Shown: positions 261 to 13,230 of the stretch, in pieces
Position numbering within the stretch: position 1 is the first letter of the stretch
Layout: the number at the start of each line of letters is the position of its first letter
Assembly (NCBI GenBank): GCA_963663035.1
Contig: OY760074.1
Coordinates: 256,001 to 320,000 of the forward strand
DNA length: 64,000 bases
Reading direction: 5' to 3'
Source of the DNA: Acidobacteriota bacterium
GTDB lineage: Bacteria; Acidobacteriota; UBA6911; RPQK01; JADFOI01
Notes under the pieces: model-generated
What the model was told of the DNA's origin: nothing
Seen by the model: the letters and a program-made list of their open reading frames with translations, nothing else
Database searches by the model: none
Translations under genes and position numbers: made by a program

Positions 261-2435
261 ATGATTAGGCGGTATCTTGGTTTAGGCGTCATTCTGTTCA
301 GCTGGTCTGCGTCCTCTGGACTTGCTGCCCAGGACGGTGCGGTGGAAGGCTCCGCAGAAAAAGTCACCACGGCTCAACGGATCGACACCAAGCTTGTCAT
401 CGATGGCGAACTTGACGAACCCGAATGGGATCTTGTGGAACCTATCAGCGATTTTGTTCAACAGGACCCGAGCCCAGGCGAGGCCATAACCGAGCGAACC
501 GAGGTTCGAATTCTCTACGATGATGAATTTCTCTACTTCGGTATTTACTGCTTCGATTCAGAAGGTGAGGAAGGGATTCTTGTCACCAATTTGCAAAGAG
601 ATTTTCGTCCCTTGGACGGCGATGTGTTTAGCCTGCTTCTGGATACTTTCGATGACGATCGCAACGGATTTCTCTTGAGTACCAACCCCTTCGGAGCCAA
701 ACGCGACACCCAGGTCGGAGAGGACGGAAGGATGAGTAATGGGGATTGGGATGGGATCTGGCATGTCCAAAGCAAGATCACTGAAAGTGGCTGGCAAGCG
801 GAAATGGCGATCCCCTTTACGACCCTCCGCTTTCGGAATACAGAAGAGCAGGTCTGGGGTCTGAACCTCCAACGACGCATCCGTCGTAAGAATGAGAGTG
901 CCCACTGGGCTCCTATTCCACGCCAGTACAGAATCAGTCGCATCTCACGAGCCGGAAGACTGGAGGGTCTCAGCGGGATCCGGCCCGGCCGCAATCTGTA
1001 TGTCAAGCCCTATATCAGCATGCCGGTCACGCGTCGGCAGGATGACGACGTCGATTTTCTTCCCGATGCTGGATTGGACCTGAAGTATGGGCTGAGTTCC
1101 GAGTTGACCCTGGATTTGACGGCCAACACAGACTTCTCACAGGTGGAAGCCGATGATCAGCAGATCAACCTGACTCGATTCAGCCTCTTCTTTCCAGAGA
1201 AGCGGGACTTTTTTCTGGAAAATGCCTCAGCCTTCCAGTTTGGCCCGCCAGGTGGTGGGGGTCTCCTGGGTGGTTTTCGGGACTTGATTCCCTTTTTCAG
1301 CCGACGAATTGGACTTTCCCAGGGCAGTCTCGTTCCGATACTGGGAGGAGCCCGCATGACGGGGAAGGTCGGGGACTACACTGTGGGTCTCCTTTCCCTG
1401 CAGGACGATGATTTCGAGGGGACTCCCTCTACCAACTTCTCGGTGATGCGGGTGCGTCGAGATGTTCTCAGCAACTCATCGATGGGAGGAATTTTTGTCA
1501 ACAAACATGAACTGGACGGTGATTCCAATCGCACCTACGGAGCCGATGTCAATTTCAGCTTCTATAGGTTTCTGGATGTCTCCACTTTCCTACTCAAGAC
1601 CGACACTCCCGAATTCCAGGACAAGGATCTGGCCGGCTTTTTCAGGGCCGCCTGGAGAGGCCCGCTGCTGACGGTCCAGGCAGACCATCTCTCCATTCAA
1701 GAAAACTTCAACGCGGAAGTAGGCTTTATTCCCCGTAAAGACATCCGGAAAACAACGGGAACGTTTGGGATACGGCCGAGGCCCCGCGAGCGGATCCCCT
1801 GGATTCGTGAATTCGAACCCTCCATCTCCATGACCTATCTTACCGACCAGGAAAACGTCCTGCAGACGCGAACCATCAACGGTCGCTTCTCAGTCAGGTT
1901 TCAAAATGAGGAACTGATCTGGTTTGCTGCCCAGTCGCGGTTTGAGCTCTTGACTGAAGACTTCGACATCCGGAGCGATCAGATGATTCCCGCAGGAGGC
2001 TATCAGTTCAATGAGTACACACTTTCGCTCCAAAGTAATGCTAGCCGTATGTTCAGTGGGAGCTTCAGAGCGGTCACGGGAGATTTCTGGGACGGTGAGA
2101 AGGACTCCTATCGTTTCAGCTTTCGCTTTCAACCCATGCCCCAATTTCGATCAGAGATCACCTGGAGCCACGACGATGTCAGGCTGCCCTCAGGGGATTT
2201 TGACACCGAGCTGGTCACCACTCGTCTGAACTATAGCTTCAACCCCAGCATGTTTCTCAATGCCCTGATCCAGTACAACAGCGATCGGAAGGAGCTCCGC
2301 AGCAATATTCGTTTCAATTTGATTCACAAGCCACTGAGCGACTTTTTCCTGGTCTACAACGAGCGGAGATCTTCAACGGGAGACGTAGCGGAACGAGCAC
2401 TCATTGCCAAGGTGACCTACGTCATTGGCCTCTAG
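261..2435 (+). CDS. CBM9-like (DOMON-like) plus DUF5916 domain protein, secreted or outer membrane
   Basis: Signal peptide after ATG 261 with GAGGGAG upstream; motifs IDGELDEPEW, NTDFSQVEAD, NLTRFSLFFPEKRDFFLE; paralog of the genes at 53.9-64 kb. Confidence 0.8.
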   Translation: MIRRYLGLGVILFSWSASSGLAAQDGAVEGSAEKVTTAQRIDTKLVIDGELDEPEWDLVEPISDFVQQDPSPGEAITERTEVRILYDDEFLYFGIYCFDSEGEEGILVTNLQRDFRPLDGDVFSLLLDTFDDDRNGFLLSTNPFGAKRDTQVGEDGRMSNGDWDGIWHVQSKITESGWQAEMAIPFTTLRFRNTEEQVWGLNLQRRIRRKNESAHWAPIPRQYRISRISRAGRLEGLSGIRPGRNLYVKPYISMPVTRRQDDDVDFLPDAGLDLKYGLSSELTLDLTANTDFSQVEADDQQINLTRFSLFFPEKRDFFLENASAFQFGPPGGGGLLGGFRDLIPFFSRRIGLSQGSLVPILGGARMTGKVGDYTVGLLSLQDDDFEGTPSTNFSVMRVRRDVLSNSSMGGIFVNKHELDGDSNRTYGADVNFSFYRFLDVSTFLLKTDTPEFQDKDLAGFFRAAWRGPLLTVQADHLSIQENFNAEVGFIPRKDIRKTTGTFGIRPRPRERIPWIREFEPSISMTYLTDQENVLQTRTINGRFSVRFQNEELIWFAAQSRFELLTEDFDIRSDQMIPAGGYQFNEYTLSLQSNASRMFSGSFRAVTGDFWDGEKDSYRFSFRFQPMPQFRSEITWSHDDVRLPSGDFDTELVTTRLNYSFNPSMFLNALIQYNSDRKELRSNIRFNLIHKPLSDFFLVYNERRSSTGDVAERALIAKVTYVIGL

Positions 2436-2585
2436 CCGGGATTATGCATAAATTTTCTACTGCAGTGCCGCAATCATCCACGCTGACTGCGTTGTGCGAC
2501 CCGCAAGCGGGTACCCCTTCGCACGCCTTGTCATCGCGGCGCCTGCGGCACTTCGTCACGAAAACCTATGCATAATCCCGGCTAG
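2432..2585 (+). repeat. MITE-like palindromic element, family A copy 1
   Basis: Perfect terminal inverted repeat ctagccgggattatgcata...tatgcataatcccggctag; the left CTAG contains the upstream TAG stop. Confidence 0.85.
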
Positions 2586-2656
2586 TCCATCCTGAGCTTT
2601 ACAAAAACTTACAAACTCCTGCTACACATCTAAGCCTGGGGTTCGTACTATACAAT

Positions 2657-4360
2657 ATGAAAATGAAGTTATCGGTTGGACTTTTGGCTACCTTGATGGG
2701 GCTGTTGTTGTCTCAGTCCGGGCTTGCCCAGCGGCAACCCGATCCTAATGCAATGTTCGAGCGACTGGACCAGAACAGGGATGGGGTCTTGACACAGGAC
2801 GAGCTTCCCGAGCAGCGCCAGGAATTTTTCGATCTGATGCTGCAAAGAGGAGACATCGACCAGGACGGTCGGCTCACCCAGGAAGAATTCACCGCCAGCC
2901 TGAGCGATGCAAGCGGACGTCCCCAGTTCGGCGGCAGGTCTCAACGGGGACGGGGCGGCGGTCAACCTCGCCCCATGAGGAGGCAGGGCAGGGCTCCCGA
3001 AGAGATATTCGAGCAGCTCGACAGCAACGGGGATGGCACAATCACGGCAGACGAAGTGCCCGAGCAGGCGCAGAGGATTCTGCAGATGGACCGCGATGGT
3101 GACGGCGTGATTACCAGGGAGGAGATCTCTCAAGGCCCTCCCGGTGGCCGCTTTGGACAGCCCCCAGGTATGGCTCCCGGTGGCCCGGGAGAACGAGCTG
3201 AAAGGATGTTCGAGGAGTTGGACAGCAATGGCGACGGACGGGTGACCAAGGAAGAAGTACCCGACAGGATGGAGCAGTTCCTGGAGCGCTTTGACCGCGA
3301 TGGGGACGGCATGGTCACCGAGGATGAAGTCTCCGGCCAACCTTTCCAGGGATCAGGACCCGCGGTCGGTCAATCTTTGCCCGACCTCCGAGTCTATGAC
3401 GCCCAGGGCAGGGAATTCCAGTTGAGCAGCCTGAAGGGGAACTATTCGGTTTTGGTTTTCGGCTGCCTCACCTGACCGCCCTTCTTACGAAACGTCTCCA
3501 GTTTGGAGACTATCTACCGCGATTACGCACCTCAAGGTGTCAACTTTTACTATATCTATAAAACTCTTGCTCATCCTGAGCTGGACGGCTACATCGAGCC
3601 GTTTACGCTCGAGGAGCGGCTGATGCACGTTAAGGAAGCCCAGCGGACACTGGGGAGCGAGATCACCTGGATCAGTGATTCCATGTCCAATGATTTGAGG
3701 CACGCCTTGGGTGATTCGCCCAACTCAGAGTTTGTGGTCGATCCGGCGGGCAAGATAGTGCGTTTGCGCGCCTGGAGTCGACCCGACGAGCTGCGTAAAG
3801 ATCTGGAGCAGCTTGTGGGGCCGGTGGAAAATCCCACCAGGGTGTCCGATCTCAACCTGAAAGTCGAGGCTCCCCCAAAGGTGGCGGCCTCGGGCGTGGT
3901 GCCACGAGTGAGGGTTCCCGGCAGGATGTTGACGGTCAGGATCGAGCCGAAGCCGAGTTCACAGCCCTATTACATGAAGCTGCGAGCTGAAGTGGATCAG
4001 CAGTTTCTGCGGGACGGTGAAGGGACTCTGTATGTTGGCTTTCATCCGGATCCCCTCTACCATGTGCACTGGAATAATTTGGTGGATCCGGTGAAGTATC
4101 AAATCACCACACCTGATGGAGTCACCGTGTCGCCGGCAGCGGGTGAAGGTCCCAAGGTGGAGGAAGCATCGGATATCGATCCGCGTGAGTTCTTAATAGA
4201 TATCAAGAAGACCGGGGATTCCCAGGATCCGTTGCAATTGGCCGTGCGTTATTTTGCCTGCAATGACGAGGAAGGCTGGTGTATAGCAGTCTCGCAAGAG
4301 TACGCGATTTATCTGGAGCCGGATCGCGACGCCGGCAGGACCTTCCGTCGAGGACGGTAA
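2657..4360 (+). CDS. Predicted selenoprotein (567 aa, Sec273): signal peptide, 6 EF-hands, deiodinase-like thioredoxin fold (CLTU), DsbD-alpha-like C-terminal domain
   Basis: ORFs 2657-3475 and 3503-4360 are in one frame with only TGA 3473-3475 between them; read-through gives VLVFGCLT-U-PPFLRN, like deiodinase FGSCTUPPF; downstream YIYKTLAHPELDGY; SECIS-like hairpin. Confidence 0.85.
3494..3510 (+). promoter_or_regulatory. Bacterial SECIS-like hairpin
   Basis: GTCTCCA-GTT-TGGAGAC: 7-bp stem with a G-starting apical loop 25 nt after the in-frame UGA. Confidence 0.7.
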
Positions 4361-4395
4361 GCCTTAGAACTCACTGCGTTCGCAGACGAAGCGAG

Positions 4396-5388
4396 TTATG
4401 GAAGAACTTTGGCTCGGCCAAGCGTGTTTTTATCGGTCCCGAACCAGATTTCTCCAGAGGAGCTGTCAAACATCATATGGCGCACGGCGCCACCACCACT
4501 TGCAATCTTGGTGACGCTGAAAAACTCTCGTGTCGTCGGATCAAAGCCCACGAACTGGTTGGGATCAGGACCGGTTTCAACGAACCAGAGTCGGTCGCTC
4601 GAGTCCACCGCCATTCCGTAGGGTCTGGAATCAGATCCTCCCGGCGAGACCCATTCTTCCGCCTCCCCAGTGGTGGGGTCCAGATGGCCCAGGGAGCCTC
4701 GAGCATAATCGACATACCAGACCTGGTCATCGGAGGTTACCTGTAAACGGCGAGGGCGGGCATCTTCATTGGGCAAGGTGTACTCTCTCAGCTTCATGGT
4801 TTGCGGATCGACGGTGCCGATCTTGTTGGTTCCCACTTCGGCAATCCAGGGCTGGTTTTTGGAATCGATGACGATCCCATAGGGACGGGCACTGGGAGTT
4901 GTGACCCGAATGAGCTGAATCTCACCTGTGGCAGTGGTCCGCTTGCCGATGAAATTCCCTCCCTGGACGGTAAACCAAATGTCGCCGTTGCCATCAAACA
5001 CCATGGTGTGAGGATCCTTGGCCTCAGGATCGGGCATTGGGTATTTGGCAATTTCCCCGGTCTCAGGATCCAGCCTGCCAATGTGGGCGGCTCGGTTTCC
5101 CGAGTACCAAACATCGCCTTCCTTATCCACAATCACATTGTGCGGGCCGGTGCCGGGTGTCAGGTCAAATTTGGTGAATTCCCCGGTGCTGACATCAAAA
5201 TTCGCTACATAGTGTGATCGTTGTCCCACAAACCAGACCCGACCCTGGCTGTCGACGAATGGATCACGGGGCCGGCTGTCTTCCCATGGAACCTCCCACT
5301 CGAGGATCTCTATCTCCTTCGCGCTGAGATCCGCAACTCCTGCAACCCAAACCAAGCTCACCAGAAAAACTGTAGCCAGCTTCTTCAT
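4396..5388 (-). CDS. Secreted Vgb (virginiamycin B lyase)-like beta-propeller protein
   Basis: Signal peptide; repeated PxxIxxDxxGxVWF blades and IGRLDPxTGE motifs. Confidence 0.8.
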   Translation of the reverse strand: MKKLATVFLVSLVWVAGVADLSAKEIEILEWEVPWEDSRPRDPFVDSQGRVWFVGQRSHYVANFDVSTGEFTKFDLTPGTGPHNVIVDKEGDVWYSGNRAAHIGRLDPETGEIAKYPMPDPEAKDPHTMVFDGNGDIWFTVQGGNFIGKRTTATGEIQLIRVTTPSARPYGIVIDSKNQPWIAEVGTNKIGTVDPQTMKLREYTLPNEDARPRRLQVTSDDQVWYVDYARGSLGHLDPTTGEAEEWVSPGGSDSRPYGMAVDSSDRLWFVETGPDPNQFVGFDPTTREFFSVTKIASGGGAVRHMMFDSSSGEIWFGTDKNTLGRAKVLP

Positions 5389-5514
5389 TTGTCAAACCTC
5401 CCAGGGAAATGATCGACTTCGTACGCTCCTCTTATTGTAGAGAGTTGCGATTGAGAAGGGAAATCTCATTCTCTCTACGAGCGAAGTGAGTCTCAGGGTA
5501 TACTCTGAGGAATT

Positions 5515-7050
5515 ATTGCTGGAAGTTCTCTTACCTTTGACGAGGATTTTGACGTCATCGTGGTCGGCTACGGCTATGCCGGGGCCATCACGGCCATCGA
5601 AGCGGCCAAGGCCGGAGCCCAGGTCCTGCTCACCGAGAAGATGCCAACCCCCGGCGGCATCTCGATTTGTTCAGGCGGAGCCGTGCGCAGCGCGCACGAT
5701 GCCAATGAGGCCTTTGCTTACCTCAAGGCCACCTGCGGAGGGCGTACCCCTGACGATGTGCTGCGCGTTCTGGCCGACGGTTTCGCGGCTGCCGAGGACT
5801 ATGTTCGCCTGCTTGCCGAGGGCACGGGTGCAGTCATCAGCACCCGCGAGAAGGGAGGTAACTATCCCTTTCCGGGGGTCAACACTTTTTACCACACCAA
5901 CATCGACGATCTGCCGGGCCTGGACGAGAGCTACTACCCGCATGTCTGCGCTCGGCCATCAGCAAACGGCTGGCGCCTCTTCAAGGTTCTGGAGGACAAC
6001 GTCGCCCGCCACAAGAATATCCAGGTTCGGCTGGAAATGCCGGCCAAGAGGCTGATCTCCAACGGAAAGAAGGAAGCGCTGGGCGTGACCTTCGAGACCA
6101 GGGACGGCCCACGACATGTCAAGGCGCGGCGGGGAGTTATCCTGGCCTGCGGTGGCTTCGAGGCCAATGAGGAGATGAAGCGACAGTATTGGGAGAAGGG
6201 GCCGGTGCTCACCGCCACCTCGAGAGCCAACACGGGAGACGGCATCCGCATGGCCCAGGATCTCGGTGCCGAGCTCTGGCACATGTGGCATTACCACGGA
6301 GCTTACGGGTTCAAGCATCCTGACCCCGACTACCCGGTGGCGATCAGGGTCAAGCGGCTGCCCGACTGGATGCCGGGCCGCGAGGCTACGGCCGGCGTCA
6401 AGATGGTCTGGATCCTGGTGGACCAGTACGGGAAAAGGTATATGAACGAATGCACACCGTATACCCATGACACCGCCCACCGCCGGATGGAGTTCTTTGA
6501 CACGGTGACACAGAGCTTCCCGCGCATTCCTTCCCACATGATCTTCGATGAAGAAGGTCGTGACCTCTACCAGATAGGTGCTCCCACCTACAACGAGCTG
6601 GGCATCGAATTCTCCTGGAGCGAGGACAATCTCAGGGAAGTGGAAATAGGGATCCTGAAACGTGCGGATTCGGTGCAGGAACTGGCCCAGATCATCAAGG
6701 CGGAGCCTGCCCTGCTGGAAGCGACCCTCGTCCGCTGGAACGAACTGTGCCAGCGCGGCCAGGACCAGGACTATGGCCGCCCGCCTGGCACCATGATGTC
6801 TGTGAGCACGCCGCCCTTCTACACGGGCCAGCTGTGGCCCGTGGTCTCGAACACCCAGGGAGGGCCCGTGCACAATACAAAGCAACAGATCATGTCTGTC
6901 TACGCTGAGCCGATCCCCCGGCTTTACTCAGCCGGAGAGCTGGGCAGCGCTTTCGGTTACCTGTATCTCTCGGGCGGCAACATCACCGAATGCTTCGTCA
7001 CCGGGCGCATTGCGGGCCGCGAGGCCGCCGCCCTGAGCCCGTGGGGTTAA
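5515..7050 (+). CDS. FAD-dependent oxidoreductase, FAD_binding_2 (fumarate reductase / 3-ketosteroid dehydrogenase-like); start uncertain
   Basis: DVIVVGYGYAG Rossmann motif, VILACGGF, NTGDGIRMA, TQGG, IPRLYSAGE; frame is open upstream of the listed GTG 5560 back to 5509. Confidence 0.8.
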   Translation: MAGSSLTFDEDFDVIVVGYGYAGAITAIEAAKAGAQVLLTEKMPTPGGISICSGGAVRSAHDANEAFAYLKATCGGRTPDDVLRVLADGFAAAEDYVRLLAEGTGAVISTREKGGNYPFPGVNTFYHTNIDDLPGLDESYYPHVCARPSANGWRLFKVLEDNVARHKNIQVRLEMPAKRLISNGKKEALGVTFETRDGPRHVKARRGVILACGGFEANEEMKRQYWEKGPVLTATSRANTGDGIRMAQDLGAELWHMWHYHGAYGFKHPDPDYPVAIRVKRLPDWMPGREATAGVKMVWILVDQYGKRYMNECTPYTHDTAHRRMEFFDTVTQSFPRIPSHMIFDEEGRDLYQIGAPTYNELGIEFSWSEDNLREVEIGILKRADSVQELAQIIKAEPALLEATLVRWNELCQRGQDQDYGRPPGTMMSVSTPPFYTGQLWPVVSNTQGGPVHNTKQQIMSVYAEPIPRLYSAGELGSAFGYLYLSGGNITECFVTGRIAGREAAALSPWG

Positions 7051-7065
7051 GCTTGACTAAGGCAG

Positions 7066-7141
7066 GTAGGGGCGCACAGCCGTGCTCCCAGAAACCTCTG
7101 TTTGTCAACGGGTTATAGGGCGCACGGCTGTGCGCCCCTAC
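7066..7141. repeat. GTAG-type REP doublet (REPIN-like)
   Basis: GTAGGGGCGCACAGCCGTGCTCCC ... GGGCGCACGGCTGTGCGCCCCTAC, inverted, between convergent genes. Confidence 0.75.
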
Positions 7142-7180
7142 ACAAGAAAGCTGGGTCAGCCGACTTTTGCGACACCCTAC

Positions 7181-7966
7181 TCAGCGCGCGGTGGAGCCGT
7201 CCAGGAAGCCAGCCACGGCGGCGTTGAAGGCTTCCGGATTGTCGAGGTTGGACAGGTGCCCAGCCTCGGGAATGACCTCCAGTTTTGCACCGGCGATGCT
7301 ATCGGCCAGGTGTTGAGCGTGGGAGAGGGGTGTCCGGTCGTCCTGCTCACCCACCACCACCAGCGTGGGGACACTCACCAGTCCCAGCAGTGGATTGACG
7401 TCGGTTGTCAGGACCGCCTTGAGCACTTCGAGGTAGCTCTTTTTGTCGAGCAGCGCTATCATCCCGGCCAATTCCTGGCGTGTCTCCCGCGCCGTCGAGG
7501 GGCGAAGAATTTCTCCCGCGGCCTGCTTTCCAAAGTCTTTCATGGTCAGGTAGTGCAGCGCTTCCTGGATTGCGTAGAGGCGGTCTGATGCCAGAGCGGG
7601 ATCAACCTGGGCAGTGCTGTCGGCCAGTACCAGGGAGCGGACACGCTGGGGCCAGCGAGCGTGGAAGGTCAGGCAAATGGATCCGCCCATGGAGAGCCCA
7701 ATCATGTGAGCGGACTCGATGCCCAGGACATCCAGACCGGCCTTGAGATCATCTGCAGCGTTCTCAATAGAGAAGGGACCGTTGCCCGAGGACTGACCGT
7801 GACAGCGGCAATCGAAAGCCACAGCATCAAACCGGTCACCCAGCTCATCGATCAGGCTACGCCAGACTTGGCCACTCGCAGCCAGGTTGTGGACCAACAC
7901 GGTTGCCGGGCCTTTCCCTTCCCGTATGTAGAACAAGACTTCGCCGTTGGCCTCAATCGTGGGCAT
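7181..7966 (-). CDS. Alpha/beta hydrolase, 3-oxoadipate enol-lactonase-like
   Basis: GLSMGG nucleophile elbow, GEQD acid, AGHLSN His. Confidence 0.8.
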   Translation of the reverse strand: MPTIEANGEVLFYIREGKGPATVLVHNLAASGQVWRSLIDELGDRFDAVAFDCRCHGQSSGNGPFSIENAADDLKAGLDVLGIESAHMIGLSMGGSICLTFHARWPQRVRSLVLADSTAQVDPALASDRLYAIQEALHYLTMKDFGKQAAGEILRPSTARETRQELAGMIALLDKKSYLEVLKAVLTTDVNPLLGLVSVPTLVVVGEQDDRTPLSHAQHLADSIAGAKLEVIPEAGHLSNLDNPEAFNAAVAGFLDGSTAR

Positions 7967-7970
7967 ATCG

Positions 7971-8996
7971 CTAAAAATATTTATCGATCATCTGCGTGAG
8001 ATCTTGCTGCTCCCGGGCGTCCATTTCAAGGACGCCCTCGACCATGCCCTGGATCTCCTCTCCCGGTAAATAATGAACGTAGAGGTTCCGCCGGGCCGTA
8101 GAAGCAATGAAATCCTCACTCTCCAGGCTCTTTTGAAGGGAGGTGTGCAAGAACTCAACTCGTTGGCTGGGGACTCCCGGAGGGCTGATCACGGCGCGCC
8201 CAATTTTCTCCAAGGCCAGTTCCCACTCCAGCCATTTTCGTGCCTCTTCAGTAATATCGGGGAACTCGAATATTGTGGGCACATCTGGGATTTCCTCCAC
8301 ACGAACGTTGTTGACCACCACCAGTGGAGTGAAGAGCCCGGCCTGGAAAGAATCCAATGCCGGGAGGACTGAAACGCAAAAGGCATGGACCTCGTTGCGC
8401 ATGATGGCCAGCTCTACGTCGGATTTCCCACGATACCCCGCTACCAGGCGGACATTTTCAATTTGTAGAGCTTCCGTGAGCAAGACGGTGCGAATGGAGT
8501 ACATGTCGTATTTGCTCATGGTGCCCAGTTTGAAAGCCGGAAGTGTCTTGAAGGTCTCAAGCGATGGGTCTTCAAAGGTGCCTCCCACCGCTAGAGCCCA
8601 GGAGTCGTAACTGAAGCGGCCCAGCCAGTTAAATTGACGAAGGTCATAGCGGGCGGATTCACTTTCCAGGATTTGATTCACGTAGGGTCCTACGGCAGTG
8701 GCGATTCCGATGGTTAACCCATCCTTTCGGGCCGAATTGTAAAGATAATTGAGAGAAAGGAGTCCTCCTGCTCCCGGCATGTTTCTCACGATGACGGTGG
8801 CTCCAGTGTGTTTTGAGAGCTCGGGAGCCATCATGCGGGCCCAGGCATCGTAGCCGCCCCCCGGGGAAGTCGGAACGATGATCTCCAGTACCCTCCCCCT
8901 GTAAAAATCCTCTGGCGCCAGGGCAGTCGAGTCCTGTTGGCAACCCACTTGCAGCAGCACAATAACCAACGCGGCCCATGGAGAAAATCGCATCAA
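7971..8996 (-). CDS. tctC: Tripartite tricarboxylate transporter substrate-binding lipoprotein (TctC/Bug family)
   Basis: Lipobox-like VGC; PTSPGGGYD, NMPGAGG, PDVPT motifs. Confidence 0.85.
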   Translation of the reverse strand: MMRFSPWAALVIVLLQVGCQQDSTALAPEDFYRGRVLEIIVPTSPGGGYDAWARMMAPELSKHTGATVIVRNMPGAGGLLSLNYLYNSARKDGLTIGIATAVGPYVNQILESESARYDLRQFNWLGRFSYDSWALAVGGTFEDPSLETFKTLPAFKLGTMSKYDMYSIRTVLLTEALQIENVRLVAGYRGKSDVELAIMRNEVHAFCVSVLPALDSFQAGLFTPLVVVNNVRVEEIPDVPTIFEFPDITEEARKWLEWELALEKIGRAVISPPGVPSQRVEFLHTSLQKSLESEDFIASTARRNLYVHYLPGEEIQGMVEGVLEMDAREQQDLTQMIDKYF

Positions 8997-9009
8997 TGCT
9001 CCAGTTCAA

Positions 9010-10947
9010 TCAGGTTGGGGACCCACCTAGAAGGATTCCCGGATAGAGGGGTACCGAGAGGAGTTGAACAAACAAGAGATGTATTGTGAGAGAAAGGACG
9101 AGCGCAAGGCTCAGAGACAACAACCAACTCTCCTTGTGTATCCGCAAGTAAACAACGGTAAAGACCGGAAGCACAAAAGTAAATCCTACCAGGTAAATTC
9201 CCAACACGAAGCAAAGGATCGATAGGGAAGCCCGGATGGAAGAGCCATATTGACCAGGACGGAGGTCCGATAGGAATTGTGCCCACCTCAAATGCCTGGT
9301 TTGGGAATAAAGTTCTGTGGAGAGAAGGCCGATCATGGGAATTCCAATGACCCACGGTCCCAACATCGCCCGCGGAGAGTATTGAAGAGAAAGGGCCAGC
9401 CCGGACAGAGAAATGGCGAAGAGCAGGAAGGTGAAGGCGAAGCCAAACACCGAAGTGGAGTCTGAAGAAGCGGGCGCCACACGTTGCCTAGTCCTGTGAG
9501 TATAAACGAGTCCGGCCAGGGTCAAAGCGATCAGAACCATCGACACCGGTCTCAGGAAGAAGGTGCTTCCATAGGCGCCTAAGGAGATGTACAGATTGGT
9601 CTCCACGATCTGGCCCAGGATAAAGCCCAGAAGCAGTGCCGGGAGATTGTAGCCAAGGGCTTTCATGGCCCAGCCGAAGGCTCCCAGAAGCAGCATCATG
9701 AAGAGATCTGAAATGTTTGTCTCGGTACTGAAGGCTCCCACCGTGATCAGGATAAGGATCACGGGAAACAGGATAGGAGCCCGCACGAAGGCAACTTTTG
9801 CCAAGCTGTTTGTGAGGAGCAGAATCAGGATACAGGCCAGTACATTGGCTAAAACCAGGGTCGCAATCAGCGAGAAGACGATATCGGCATGATCGGTCAA
9901 CAGAGCGGGCCCAGGTGTCAGACCCACAATTAAGAAGGCTCCCAACAAGATCGCCATCGAGGCACTTCCAGGAATTCCAAAGGCCAAGGTAGGCAAGAGG
10001 GCACCACCTTCCTTGGCATTGTTGGCGCTTTCGGGTGCGATGACTCCTTCGATATGGCCGGAGCCGAATTCCTGGGAATGCTTTGAAGTTTGTTTCGCAT
10101 AACCATAGGCAACAAAAGGCGCCGTCTCGCCGCCCACGCCTGGAATGATTCCCACCACACATCCAATCGCAGAACAGCGCAGGACCAGCCACCAGTGGCT
10201 CAAAGCGCTTCGGATTCCCTCCACTAGATCCGCCTTGATAGCCGTGCCAGGCCTCTCAACCTGGGCCAGCGCTTTGCCTTTTGTGGCCAAATCCAAGAGG
10301 GTCGGAATTGCGAAGAGCCCCAGAACCAGCGGAATCAGTTTGATGCCGTCGTAAAGGTAGAGGCTGCCAAAAGTAAATCGCGGCACCCCGGTCAGTCCCT
10401 GATAGCCCACGAAAGAAAACAAGATACCCACTCCTCCGGAGACCAGCCCTTTCACAGTAGATTCCCTGGAGATGATGGCGATGAAAGAGAGGGCAAGGAT
10501 CCCGAAAAAAAATGTTTCGGGTGAGCCAAAGACCATCACCACGCTGGAGACCACTGGAATCAGGGCAGCCAGCACGAAAGCCCCGAAGCATCCTCCCAGC
10601 ATGGAGGCGACGAAGGCTGCACCCAGGGCCTGGCCGGACTTTCCTTTTTTCGTTAAGGGAAAGCCATCAATGAGGGTGGCTGCATTGGGTGAAGCCCCTG
10701 GAATATTGAGGAGGATGGCGGTCACGGCTCCCCCCGAGTAGACGACCGAGTGAACCGCCAGCAGGAAGGTCAGAGCATGGACGCGCTCCATGTCATAAAT
10801 CAGAGGGGTGAGAATGGCCAGGGCCACAATCCCGCTGAGACCCGGGAGAATTCCAAACAGGAGGCCGATGACCACCCCGATGACAATGAGCACCAGGATA
10901 TCCGGCTGAAAAATGGTGAGTGTTCCTGTGACGATGGCTTCAAGCAT
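9010..10947 (-). CDS. tctA: TctA permease with a fused C-terminal TctB-like domain
   Basis: GILPGL, AILLNIPG, GIIPGVGG, APESANNA, LAFGIPGS; about 150-aa extra hydrophobic C-terminus ending LLSVPLYPG. Confidence 0.85.
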   Translation of the reverse strand: MLEAIVTGTLTIFQPDILVLIVIGVVIGLLFGILPGLSGIVALAILTPLIYDMERVHALTFLLAVHSVVYSGGAVTAILLNIPGASPNAATLIDGFPLTKKGKSGQALGAAFVASMLGGCFGAFVLAALIPVVSSVVMVFGSPETFFFGILALSFIAIISRESTVKGLVSGGVGILFSFVGYQGLTGVPRFTFGSLYLYDGIKLIPLVLGLFAIPTLLDLATKGKALAQVERPGTAIKADLVEGIRSALSHWWLVLRCSAIGCVVGIIPGVGGETAPFVAYGYAKQTSKHSQEFGSGHIEGVIAPESANNAKEGGALLPTLAFGIPGSASMAILLGAFLIVGLTPGPALLTDHADIVFSLIATLVLANVLACILILLLTNSLAKVAFVRAPILFPVILILITVGAFSTETNISDLFMMLLLGAFGWAMKALGYNLPALLLGFILGQIVETNLYISLGAYGSTFFLRPVSMVLIALTLAGLVYTHRTRQRVAPASSDSTSVFGFAFTFLLFAISLSGLALSLQYSPRAMLGPWVIGIPMIGLLSTELYSQTRHLRWAQFLSDLRPGQYGSSIRASLSILCFVLGIYLVGFTFVLPVFTVVYLRIHKESWLLSLSLALVLSLTIHLLFVQLLSVPLYPGILLGGSPT

Positions 10948-11040
10948 TTTTCACAGCTGTAGTGCCGTCGATGAGGATTTTGATTCTACAATGAATCAGT
11001 CGGAAGGGAAACGTGGGGACAGGAGAGTGGCTAGGCGGGA

Positions 11041-11691
11041 TTATGCCTTATTCCGGCTACACCGGATCAAAGGCCGGTAGTACCGTGCCGGTATCCTCTG
11101 ATCAACAGCACGGACTGACGGCTGGCTTTGCCTCCTGCCTGATAGCCTGTGAAGCTTCTCATTCAGCTGGTAAAAGTCTTCGGCATCTCTAATGCAGAAG
11201 AAGTCCAGTCGCAAGCGTAGACGCGTGTCCACTGGAATCTCGGGTGCAAGGATCTCGATGGAGTTCATAGAGTAGGTCATGACTTCGTTACTAAAGTGGA
11301 CCTGCATGTTGACAAACAAACTGCAAAGGAGAACGAGCATGGCCATGACGTTAAACAGGACATGATGCTTGGCGAATTGGAAAAGTGTTTCTATTGACTC
11401 TCTGGGACTTGTCCTGCTCAGGATGAAGTTGGCGGCCCACAGGCTGACATAGCCGATTGCCACTACCATGAGTGCCAGGATGCTGAGGTAGGCGAACGCA
11501 TTCATCAGTTCAAAGCCTTTGGTTGCTTCTCGGTAGATGGCGTCTCGGAATGAGGGCGAGATTGCCGCCAGAAGTCTTACCGCCCAGTCCATTGGCGAGA
11601 ATAAACCTTGCCAGACACCATAGGCAAGACTACCTAACAAAAGTACGGCCTTGATGCGCCCCAGAATCAAAAGCTTGTGACCCATTTTCAC
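11041..11691 (-). CDS. Hypothetical membrane protein
   Basis: About 3 hydrophobic segments; GGAGAGG upstream of GTG; no family recognised. Confidence 0.55.
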   Translation of the reverse strand: MKMGHKLLILGRIKAVLLLGSLAYGVWQGLFSPMDWAVRLLAAISPSFRDAIYREATKGFELMNAFAYLSILALMVVAIGYVSLWAANFILSRTSPRESIETLFQFAKHHVLFNVMAMLVLLCSLFVNMQVHFSNEVMTYSMNSIEILAPEIPVDTRLRLRLDFFCIRDAEDFYQLNEKLHRLSGRRQSQPSVRAVDQRIPARYYRPLIRCSRNKA

Positions 11692-11772: not shown

Positions 11773-13152
11773 GAGGTTCCGTCAATAAGTGTGTAAATAG
11801 ACATCAGGCGGCTTTCTCCTGGGTGACTGGGTTGACTGGAACTCCATTGACATATTGGGCTCCTTGGTAGACATCCTTCATCAAGTGGGGAGCCTTCAAA
11901 CGGCGAAATCTCTTCTCAGCGACCAGCAGCATCTTCCAGATGACAGCCCGTGCGTTGGCCACTTTCTTGAACCTTCGAGCAGCATCGGTTCGCAGTCGCA
12001 GAGCAGAGAAGGGAGACTCCACTGGGTTGGTAGTCCGCAGATGTTGCCACTGCTGTTTGGGATAGTTGTAAAACGTCACCATCCGCTCCCAGTCCTGGTC
12101 GATCAGATCAGCCGCTGCCTCCAGGCCTCTCTTGCTACACCAATGTTGGAATCGTCCTTTGACTCGCTCGGCTTCCTGCCGTGTTTCTGCATAAGGGATC
12201 TGCCGCAACATCAACAAGGCCGCTTTGTGCCGACTCTTGGGGATCTTGGCCAGCAAGTTGACGATGCGATGATTCCAGCATCTCTGCTCGTCGGCTTCTG
12301 GGAACACGTTGCGCAACGCTCCCCAGATCCCCAGATGCCCGTCAGCGATCACCAGACGGGGTGGGTTCATCCCCCGCTCTTTGAGATCCCGCAGCACTGC
12401 GGACCAGCTCTGGGTCGATTCTCGATAACCACTACTGACGGACACCACCACTTTAGTGCCATCACTTAAAGCGGCGATCACTACCAGAATCACGGCCTTC
12501 TCCTTCTCCAGCCCTGCTTTGATGTACACGCCGTCCGCCCACAAATACACGACTTCCAGATCATCCAGCCGACGGCTCTGCCAGGCCTCCATTTCTCCCT
12601 GCCACTTCTGTTTCAACCGGGCTACGGTGCTGGGGGACAGCGGCGCTTCTTCCCCTAAAAGCCCTCTCAAGGCCAGATCGAAATCCCCCTCGGCCAGACC
12701 ATGTAAATAGAGTTCTGGAATCAAGTCTCGTACCTCTCGCGTTCGCTTGGCAAACAGCGGCAAGACCCGGCTCTCAAAACGCTCTTCCAGATCCCGCACT
12801 CGGGGACGCCGCAGCTTGATCGTTCCGCAACTCATCGTCAGTCGCCGCTCCTTGCCGTAGCCGTTGCGATAGCCACCGGAGGCGTCCACTTCTCGGCGAC
12901 GCTCATTCTTTCTTCGTCCCAGCAGCTGTGTCACTTCATCCTCCAGCAGTTCCTGTACGTAAAACTGGATCTGCTCTCGCACCCACTCTTCCAGCTGTTC
13001 AAAGCAGACTCTTGACTCCACACTGTGATCAATGTTCTTCTTGCTCATGGCGGTGTGACTCCTTCCTTTCGGGCTCTTCCGCCCGGGTTTTTATTTTCAC
13101 CCGGAAGGATAATCACCGCCTGTGCTATTTACACACCTTTTGAGGGTAGCTC
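11773..13152 (-). mobile_element. IS256-family insertion sequence (1380 bp)
   Basis: Imperfect 28-bp TIRs (gaggttccgtcaataagtgtgtaaatag / ctatttacacaccttttgagggtagctc); 9-bp direct repeat CGACTGAAA at 11764-11772 and 13153-13161. Confidence 0.95.
11804..13048 (-). CDS. IS256-family transposase
   Basis: YRNGY, PRVR, YLWADG, IADG, QRCWNH, RTTNPVES motifs. Confidence 0.95.
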   Translation of the reverse strand: MSKKNIDHSVESRVCFEQLEEWVREQIQFYVQELLEDEVTQLLGRRKNERRREVDASGGYRNGYGKERRLTMSCGTIKLRRPRVRDLEERFESRVLPLFAKRTREVRDLIPELYLHGLAEGDFDLALRGLLGEEAPLSPSTVARLKQKWQGEMEAWQSRRLDDLEVVYLWADGVYIKAGLEKEKAVILVVIAALSDGTKVVVSVSSGYRESTQSWSAVLRDLKERGMNPPRLVIADGHLGIWGALRNVFPEADEQRCWNHRIVNLLAKIPKSRHKAALLMLRQIPYAETRQEAERVKGRFQHWCSKRGLEAAADLIDQDWERMVTFYNYPKQQWQHLRTTNPVESPFSALRLRTDAARRFKKVANARAVIWKMLLVAEKRFRRLKAPHLMKDVYQGAQYVNGVPVNPVTQEKAA

Positions 13153-13230
13153 CGACTGAAATGATCGGTTTGCTAGTCGACGAATCTGAACGGCAGAAGA
13201 GTAGACTGCTGAGTAGCTACCCTTCTGGAC

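Follow-up and report, generated by a model that had tools for sequence, protein, structure and literature searches.

The gene at positions 2657-4360 of the forward strand of a 64,000-nucleotide stretch of Acidobacteriota DNA (the window; assembly GCA_963663035.1, contig OY760074.1, positions 256,001 to 320,000) is almost certainly a single gene in which an in-frame UGA codon is decoded as selenocysteine (Sec), yielding a selenoprotein of 567 amino acids. The explanation that best accounts for the evidence overall, and that is considered very probable, is that the product is exported and built of three parts, namely a calcium-binding EF-hand region, a thioredoxin-fold deiodinase-like domain that contains the Sec residue, and an immunoglobulin-like (Ig-like) domain with a close pair of cysteines, and that Sec decoding is guided by a hairpin located immediately downstream of the UGA. 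Thioredoxin-fold selenoproteins of this kind are familiar to specialists, and the family to which this one belongs is widespread and systematically mis-annotated. Short of chemistry, the selenoprotein reading is taken here as settled on the sequence evidence.

One Gene With an In-Frame Selenocysteine Codon

The gene begins with ATG at 2657, carries its Sec codon at 3473-3475 and terminates with TAA at 4358-4360. An earlier note on this DNA, made from the letters alone, had described two open reading frames (ORFs) divided by a single TGA, and this description holds: the ORFs at 2657-3475 (272 amino acids) and 3503-4360 (285 amino acids) share a common frame, and TGA 3473-3475 is the sole interruption because the frame is open from 3476 onward. 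Reading the TGA as Sec (U) gives 567 residues that include VLVFGCLT-U-PPFLRN, with U as residue 273, followed by PPFLRNVSSLETIYRDY after U and FYYIYKTLAHPELDGY further on. Three residues before Sec lies Cys270 (codon TGC, 3464-3466), the proposed resolving cysteine, and the residues G-C that start the motif are kept in 20/20 related loci, 80/80 wider loci and 49/49 full-length homologues. The TGA is not a sequencing error, an eventuality that the earlier note had raised, as it is carried by independent assemblies; contigs of runs from three different studies cover 2876/2877-3518 with 0, 0, and 1 differing letters, and the TGA is present in them.

The TGA is conserved among orthologues, which preserve both halves of the protein in a single frame. 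When 61 genomes from this order, among them the source genome (G000), were searched in six frames, 35 gave a match, one of which (the unpublished genome G017) had a weak hit only, from which no inference is drawn. The TGA stands within GCL[TS]UPPF in 20 of the 21 related loci that were fetched, a set of 20 that includes the window itself and its terminal duplicate (described below), and the 21st locus holds the C-terminal part only. In a pattern scan restricted to one genome per species, 519 stretches were recovered, of which 481 encode a relative, and among the best 80 of these 481 the TGA occupies the site in every one (78 by pattern, 2 by eye); over both sets of loci the motif reads GCL[TSI]UPPF. 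The best 80 come from named metagenome-assembled genomes, whose record titles give Acidobacteriota, Planctomycetota, Latescibacterota, Poribacteria, Verrucomicrobiota, Kiritimatiellia, and Krumholzibacteriia (at least seven phyla). In one Latescibacterota locus (L051), a second TGA paralogue with the motif GSFTUPPF is found at 1183, approximately 3 kb upstream of the orthologue at 4120.

Homologues in the protein databases bear out a further expectation of the earlier note, that automated annotation would split the gene, and its proposed check for Cys aligned to the TGA also came out in its favour. When residues 233-567 were used as the query, 118 of the best 120 hits covered no more than 87% of it and were without the part before the TGA, and the remaining two (P0058 and P0098) span the site and have Cys there. 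A second protein search that admitted longer proteins listed 120 hits, of which 49 cover at least 90% of residues 233-420; the site residue is Cys in 48 of these 49 (GC[LM]TCP) and Trp in one (GCLTWP). The Cys forms have been named by NCBI as ‘TlpA family protein disulfide reductase’, ‘peroxiredoxin family protein’, or ‘redoxin domain-containing protein’. One Cys form of 684 amino acids (P0123) carries a C-terminal esterase/lipase fusion (Pfam PF00135, PF07859, and PF20434, precomputed), and the full-length homologue with Trp (P0139, GCLTWPPF) could reflect a TGA-to-TGG change or an inactive form.

Metagenomic contigs from three runs show a summed depth that is several-fold higher over window positions 3455-3511 and 3569-3682 (the segment that encodes AHP); evidently the TGA-plus-hairpin and AHP stretches are almost identical in the contigs of many relatives in those samples. 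In each of these three runs, a single contig carries a +1 change at 3480 and a -1 change at 3488. Five contigs of a metatranscriptome run (X19) were considered as evidence of expression or read-through and were rejected; the contig over the TGA has 12 letters before it, and the contigs come from relatives, because their likeness to the window is 90-95%.

The genome encodes the complete Sec machinery, for which the earlier note had proposed a check. The matches to selA (559 bits), selB (370 bits), and selD (378 bits) are all above curated cut-offs, as is that to tRNA-Sec (66.1 bits), which ARAGORN calls as tRNA-SeC with the anticodon TCA. The selD gene (G000 3111136-3112059) is itself a selenoprotein gene with an in-frame TGA. 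TGA is also the commonest stop codon of the genome, terminating 849 of 1849 long open frames, and this is therefore not a code-4 or code-25 organism; stop usage thus rules out a reading of the TGA under either of those codes. Two further deiodinase-like selenoprotein genes are present in the genome, at G000 3280484-3281053 (+; VLVFGAITUPPY) and 1374015-1374470 (-; VLEFGSLTUPFC). Both of these paralogues pass the threshold of the deiodinase family PF00837 (56.4 and 48.0 bits), and a hairpin follows each TGA.

The SECIS-Like Hairpin

The hairpin resembling a selenocysteine insertion sequence (SECIS) occupies 3494-3510 on the forward strand. Its stem is formed by GTCTCCA (3494-3500) and TGGAGAC (3504-3510), which enclose the loop GTT (GUU in the RNA; 3501-3503), and this is the seven-base-pair structure with a G-first loop that the earlier note had placed 25 nucleotides past the TGA. 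The distance from the TGA to the stem foot is 18 nucleotides, and the folding energy is -8.6 kcal/mol for the hairpin alone and -10.0 kcal/mol in context. The model of the bacterial SECIS (bSECIS) set out in the text of a 2026 inventory calls for a loop of 3-9 nucleotides, a stem of 4-16 bp, a G in the first two loop positions, a UGA-to-loop distance of 16-37 nucleotides, and a minimum free energy of -7.5 kcal/mol or lower (PMC13188914). The hairpin of the window agrees with this model on all four constraints (GUU loop, 7 bp, 25 nucleotides, and -8.6 to -10.0 kcal/mol), in keeping with the earlier suggestion that it is SECIS-like.

Conservation of the hairpin was examined in an alignment of 99 sixty-base stretches drawn from both locus sets, 90 of which are distinct (the sets overlap in part). 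The first base of the loop is G in 99/99 sequences, and standard pairs are found in 91.0% of the hairpin pair cells. Compensatory changes occur at pair 24-36, where C-G is replaced by U-A in four sequences, and at pair 23-37, where U-A is replaced by C-G in one, giving five doubly changed cells, a number reached by 0 of 500 shuffles. A codon alignment of 16 full orthologues (L031, L040, and L042 were omitted as apparently broken) contained 209 eligible columns, defined as those with a degenerate and well-conserved residue. A single codon is used in six of the 209, and four of the six are hairpin codons (48, 49, 51, and 52; GTC, TCC, TTG, and GAG). The synonymous sites of the hairpin are frozen, which represents a constraint at the level of the RNA.

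Several results weigh in the opposite direction. The hairpin is of modest size and folds unexceptionally in its local setting, with a z-score of -1.56 for a 68-nucleotide fold that 16 of 200 shuffles equal or better, and an Rfam scan of 3300-3700 with E-values up to 10 matched zero families. Covariation is thin, in that the count of two doubly changed pairs is reached by 19 of 500 shuffles, and 52 of the 90 distinct orthologue sequences have a C.A mismatch at the middle pair, a variant that folds at just -3.8 kcal/mol on its own. The hairpin is unremarkable by itself; the TGA and the position of the hairpin are constant in every orthologue examined.

Signal Peptide, EF-Hands, and Redox Domain

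The N-terminus is predicted to be a Sec-type (secretory) signal peptide, MKMKLSVGLLATLMGLLLSQSGLA, comprising residues 1-24 (2657-2728) and probably cleaved after GLA. As read from the sequence, it has a basic N-terminus, a hydrophobic core, and small residues at -3 and -1, the Cys forms start likewise, and the product is presumably exported. It is followed at residues 31-226 (2747-3334) by a calcium-binding region with six EF-hand loops arranged in three pairs and with linkers rich in Gly, Arg, and Pro. Six stretches of this region match Pfam EF-hand_1 (E 2.9e-25, 86.4 bits), and EF-hand_5, EF-hand_6, EF-hand_7, and EF-hand_8 are also above their cut-offs. The EF-hands appear to be a movable accessory, because they are located at the C-terminus in many orthologues. 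Matches to lanmodulin and XopAW fell below cut-offs and were rejected as generic EF-hand likeness.

Residues 237-375 (3365-3781) constitute the thioredoxin-fold, deiodinase-like domain, which was recognised by Pfam, a search of the Protein Data Bank (PDB), and Foldseek. It matches AhpC-TSA (PF00578) at 31.8 bits and 36.5 bits, above the gathering cut-off of 26. Of the PDB sequences, that of mouse Dio3 matches best (4tr3; E 2.2e-4 with the single sequence and 4.6e-5 with a profile), which upholds the likeness to deiodinases recognised in the earlier note. The HMMER alignment to 4tr3 spans FG..T-U/C-PPF...Y...AHP..DG[WY], and the His and Tyr of this pattern are invariant in the family alignment. 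A two-domain model has a predicted local distance difference test score (pLDDT) of 90.2 and a predicted template modelling score (pTM) of 0.85, and Foldseek matches the redox domain to ResA, Dio2, and Dio3 (template modelling scores, TMt, of 0.82, 0.74, and 0.71, respectively). Two profile scores count against a straightforward assignment to the deiodinases: T4_deiodinase (PF00837) gives 21.0 bits with the whole protein and 24.7 with the domain alone, below its cut-off of 27, and NF038285 gives 101.9 bits, below its curated cut-off of 250.

The register of the active site differs from what the motif would suggest at first sight. HMMER places U on Dio3 residue Sec170, which is Cys in the mutant used for the crystal structure, and on the leading Cys of the CEPC motif of ResA, and therefore Cys270 takes the place of the deiodinase Ser(-3) and is not the second thioredoxin Cys; where ResA has the second Cys of CEPC, this protein has Phe. 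The motif is thus CxxU in sequence, without the thioredoxin register. The earlier note, which had called it a thioredoxin-type CxxU, was correct that Cys at -3 replaces the deiodinase Ser and incorrect as to the register, since U aligns with the first ResA Cys. The peroxiredoxin active-site motif PxxxTxxC/U, as given in the text of PMC13188914, is absent, as L-V-F-G-C-L-T-U has no Pro at -7 and has Cys, not Thr, at -3. Residues assigned to the deiodinase proton relay in the text of PMC11592359 are Ser(-3), Thr(-1), Tyr, Glu, and His. By alignment, and with a mapping of the published numbers that we infer, Thr, Tyr, and His are present here and Ser and Glu are replaced by Cys and Leu, respectively. 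The His that matches Dio3-His202 is invariant in the family alignment.

The C-Terminal Domain and Its Cysteine Pair

The C-terminal domain, which lay outside the description given in the earlier note, comprises residues 408-555 (3878-4321) and is an Ig-like beta-sandwich with invariant HWNN, DPREF, and YxAC...C. It is all-beta in an AlphaFold2 model (pLDDT 92.0). Its cysteines, Cys535 (TGC, 4259-4261) and Cys542 (TGT, 4280-4282), form the proposed second redox centre (4259-4282). Both are invariant in 30-sequence alignments, and the regular expression for the pair matches 47 of the 49 Cys-form homologues. All four redox residues (Cys270, Sec273 or Cys, Cys535, and Cys542) are invariant in Sec and Cys forms alike.

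The domain weakly resembles the N-terminal domain of DsbD, a likeness that is suggestive and not established. A precomputed match to Pfam DsbD_N (PF11412) is found in six of the 120 listed homologues, and one homologous fragment has been named by NCBI as ‘protein-disulfide reductase DsbD N-terminal domain-containing protein’. A canonical DsbD of three domains (an N-domain, a membrane domain, and a thioredoxin domain) is among the proteins of this genome, and hhalign sets the family alignment against the N-domain of this DsbD as LAVRYFACNDEEGWC-IAVSQEY over TFRYQACNDQ--VCLAPVSQDV, cysteine on cysteine, with the aligned segment being RYFACND..C..VSQ. The dsbD gene (L124 874-2688; G000 640758-642572) lies approximately 1.4 kb from selB (G000 644003-645916) on the opposite strand, which may be a coincidence.

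The likeness is tempered by the scores themselves. The hhalign probability is just 10.4%, and DsbD_N scores 19.4 and 22.6 bits (E 1.1e-4), below the gathering cut-off of 25. With the C-terminal domain as query, the matches listed by Foldseek were generic Ig-like folds that did not reach E <= 0.001, and a DsbD N-domain was not among them. A PDB profile search with the family alignment likewise had no DsbD chain among the best 60 listed. In the ESM Atlas the C-terminal domain gave values of 0.84-0.86, below a meaningful level, with DsbD_N in 11% of the members of one cluster.

Relationship to Known Proteins

Bacterial deiodinase-like selenoproteins, which occur in Sec and Cys forms and have a bacterial SECIS directly behind the UGA, were described in 2005 (Zhang, Fomenko & Gladyshev; PMC1088965) and counted again in 2008 (PMC2398784), and EF-hand fusions of deiodinase-like selenoproteins were reported in 2021 (PMC9402790). 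A 2026 inventory of 119 families lists a ‘Deiodinase-like protein, PF00837, UxxC’; in the text of that inventory, EF-hand, NF038285, calcium, and periplasm are absent, and DsbD appears once, as a rhodanese/DsbD fusion (PMC13188914). The present protein shares with the bacterial deiodinase-like class the thioredoxin fold with Sec in ..TUPP.., the occurrence of Sec and Cys forms, and the SECIS after the UGA, and the NF038285 profile (‘deiodinase family protein’) matches both its EF-hand region and its redox domain. In contrast to the listed UxxC, it has C-x-x-U with Phe at +3, and it possesses an extra conserved domain of approximately 150 residues with a cysteine pair. The NF038285 profile has no room for this domain, because the redox domain falls at 174-321 of its 347 positions. 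The deiodinase-like selenoprotein class and its fusion to EF-hands are thus already known, and the variation seen here would be the CxxU motif joined to a DsbD-N-like domain. Full-text searches of the literature turned up no paper in which a single protein combines CxxU with EF-hands and a DsbD-N-like domain; the figures and supplements of PMC9402790, which fall outside this comparison, may show the family.

A close published fusion, judged by its description in the text of PMC9402790, is a peroxiredoxin-like (Prx-like) selenoprotein joined to a ‘DsbC’ domain assigned to Pfam11412. Both proteins couple a redoxin Sec domain to a domain of the PF11412 type that has additional conserved cysteines; the Prx-like protein is described as U/CxxC with no mention of EF-hands, whereas the present one is CxxU. 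The animal deiodinases Dio1-3 (PF00837; 4tr3/4tr4, 9h48) have in common with it the position of Sec, Thr(-1), the Tyr of strand beta2, and the His of AHP, at 21-24% identity (24% for Dio3). They differ in the two replacements noted above (Ser(-3) and the Glu before His) and in being membrane-anchored, whereas this protein is predicted to be exported and soluble and has the added EF-hand and Ig-like domains. A thyronine substrate is not expected in bacteria.

DsbD similarly combines an Ig-like domain bearing a close cysteine pair with a thioredoxin-fold domain outside the cytoplasm, but the present protein has no membrane domain, and the spacing of its pair is C-x6-C, with C-x5-C in most Cys forms. 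When the two domains are compared together, Foldseek ranks first (E 2.8e-10) the C-terminal region of DipZ from Mycobacterium tuberculosis (2hyx, 5cyy), in which a thioredoxin-like domain is likewise followed by a beta-sandwich. Identity to DipZ is 11-12%, and the domains are arranged differently, because the TM-score is 0.37 and the root-mean-square deviation 13.6 Å. ResA and TlpA, finally, are distinguished by a CxxC motif, the second Cys position of which is Phe in this protein.

A Possible Electron Relay and the Alternatives

An intramolecular relay is the simplest reading of this architecture, because a thioredoxin-fold Sec centre is fused to a DsbD-N-like domain and the four redox residues are invariant. 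In DsbD, the Cys103-Cys109 pair of the Ig-like N-domain is reduced by the thioredoxin-fold C-domain, and electrons pass onward to other thioredoxin-fold proteins, as described in the text of PMC2631958. By analogy, once the UGA had been decoded by SelA, SelB, SelD, and tRNA-Sec under the guidance of the hairpin at 3494-3510, the Sec273 selenolate would attack an oxidised substrate outside the cytoplasm, which could be a peroxide, a sulfenate, or a disulfide, or possibly a halogenated compound. Cys270 would then resolve the selenenyl intermediate to a selenenylsulfide, Cys535 and Cys542 of the fused domain would reduce the selenenylsulfide, and the membrane reductase DsbD would recharge Cys535 and Cys542. 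Such a selenol/thiol relay between Sec273/Cys270, Cys535/Cys542, and DsbD, including its direction, is put forward tentatively, at somewhat less than an even chance.

The alternative that survives best, possible if doubtful, is that the protein is a plain peroxidase or a TlpA-type disulfide reductase, the C-terminal domain of which has a structural or binding role and a structural disulfide, with no relay. The AhpC-TSA match above the Pfam cut-off, the top TM-score for ResA, and the names given by NCBI to the Cys forms all agree with this, as do the generic Ig-like folds that Foldseek returns for the C-terminal domain, and two close cysteines in an exported beta-hairpin could form a structural bond. 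Its difficulties are that PxxxTxxC/U is absent, that the second CxxC Cys of TlpA and ResA is Phe here, and that Pfam and hhalign place the cysteine pair in a segment corresponding to the active site of the DsbD N-domain.

A true periplasmic reductive dehalogenase, in which the selenolate would take the halogen off an aromatic ring as animal deiodinases do, is considered unlikely. Halogenated tyrosine-derived and phenolic compounds are common in marine settings, and metagenomes of marine sediment are among the runs in which this DNA occurs. By sequence, no solved structures are nearer than those of Dio3 and Dio2, with FG.xTUPPF...Y...AHP.DG[WY] shared, and the invariant His equivalent to Dio3-His202 is implicated in substrate binding or proton relay in the text of PMC11592359. 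However, two proton-relay residues are replaced (Cys stands in for Ser(-3), and Leu for the Glu that lies two positions ahead of His), the PF00837 score is under its cut-off, no halogen-related neighbours were found in the flanks of 80 loci, and bacterial deiodinase-like proteins have been argued probably to serve another redox function (Zhang et al., 2005; PMC1088965). A bolder form of the same idea, a selenium-dependent dehalogenase of the cell envelope that would be a free-living relative of the animal-deiodinase ancestor and would strip iodine or bromine from aromatics with electrons from DsbD and the DsbD-N-like pair, must be counted as slightly less probable still. Least probable is that the TGA acts as a genuine stop, whether because of pseudogene decay, a wrong base call, or the presence of two genes, or that it is read as Trp or Cys: translation table 11 does yield two ORFs with a possible TTG start at 3503 for the second, one homologue has Trp at the site, and Rfam has no SECIS match, but a stop would sever the thioredoxin fold in the middle of the active site, 80/80 and 20/21 loci retain the TGA with protein-level conservation of both halves, the TGA recurs in contigs of three studies, and the genome has the full Sec machinery and TGA as its commonest stop.

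Genomic Context

The selenoprotein gene is followed by a terminator-like hairpin with a T-run on the forward strand (4408-4422), 48 nucleotides past the stop codon; the consensus scan that identified it found five sites against 2.1 expected in shuffles. Neighbouring genes encode a DUF5916 protein (51-2435), a beta-propeller of the virginiamycin-B-lyase family on the opposite strand (4396-5388), and an FAD-binding oxidoreductase (5560-7050). Within 1.5-kb flanks of 19 loci, the conserved neighbours are common to the closest relatives only. Gene context also fails to favour the functional reading proposed above, as neither a conserved neighbour nor an operon partner was found in flanks of up to 4 kb at 80 loci. 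The largest true clusters, gyrase A and an 810-aa (amino acid) protein without a Pfam match, each occur at 11/80 loci, and a sulfatase occurs at 7/80. Larger flanking clusters were set aside because their representatives overlap the gene itself in other frames.

The gene is also contained in a duplication. Window positions 1832-11102 (G000 257832-267102) are an inverted copy of G000 3585413-3594683, the last 9,271 bases of the single 3.59-Mb contig, and the second gene copy at G000 3592158-3593162 was not counted as an independent locus because this 9,271-bp stretch is 100% identical, inverted, and ends exactly at the contig end. The terminal duplicate is probably an assembly artefact or a duplication mediated by an insertion sequence (IS). 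An IS copy precedes the duplicate, another is located at window positions 11774-13153, and a BLAST of the two contig ends indicated that the genome is crowded with near-identical insertion sequences (approximately 1.53, 1.38, and 1.27 kb), each in dozens of copies.

Significance

At the species level the family is present in hundreds of genomes, which span seven or more phyla (481 relatives with one genome per species), and protein databases hold just the back half of its members, as ‘hypothetical’ or ‘EF-hand domain-containing protein’, because the public gene calls examined are almost always cut at the Sec codon. With correct annotation, the selenoproteomes of Acidobacteriota, Planctomycetota, Verrucomicrobiota, and other groups would each gain a selenoprotein that is predicted to be exported. 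Because a Sec centre is fused here to a cysteine pair of the DsbD-N-like kind, there is a testable electron path for a class of proteins that has awaited a function since 2005. Among bacterial proteins with a confident model, this is the nearest to the deiodinases in sequence, and it is a reasonable subject for the question of which roles deiodinase-like proteins may have had before thyroid hormones.

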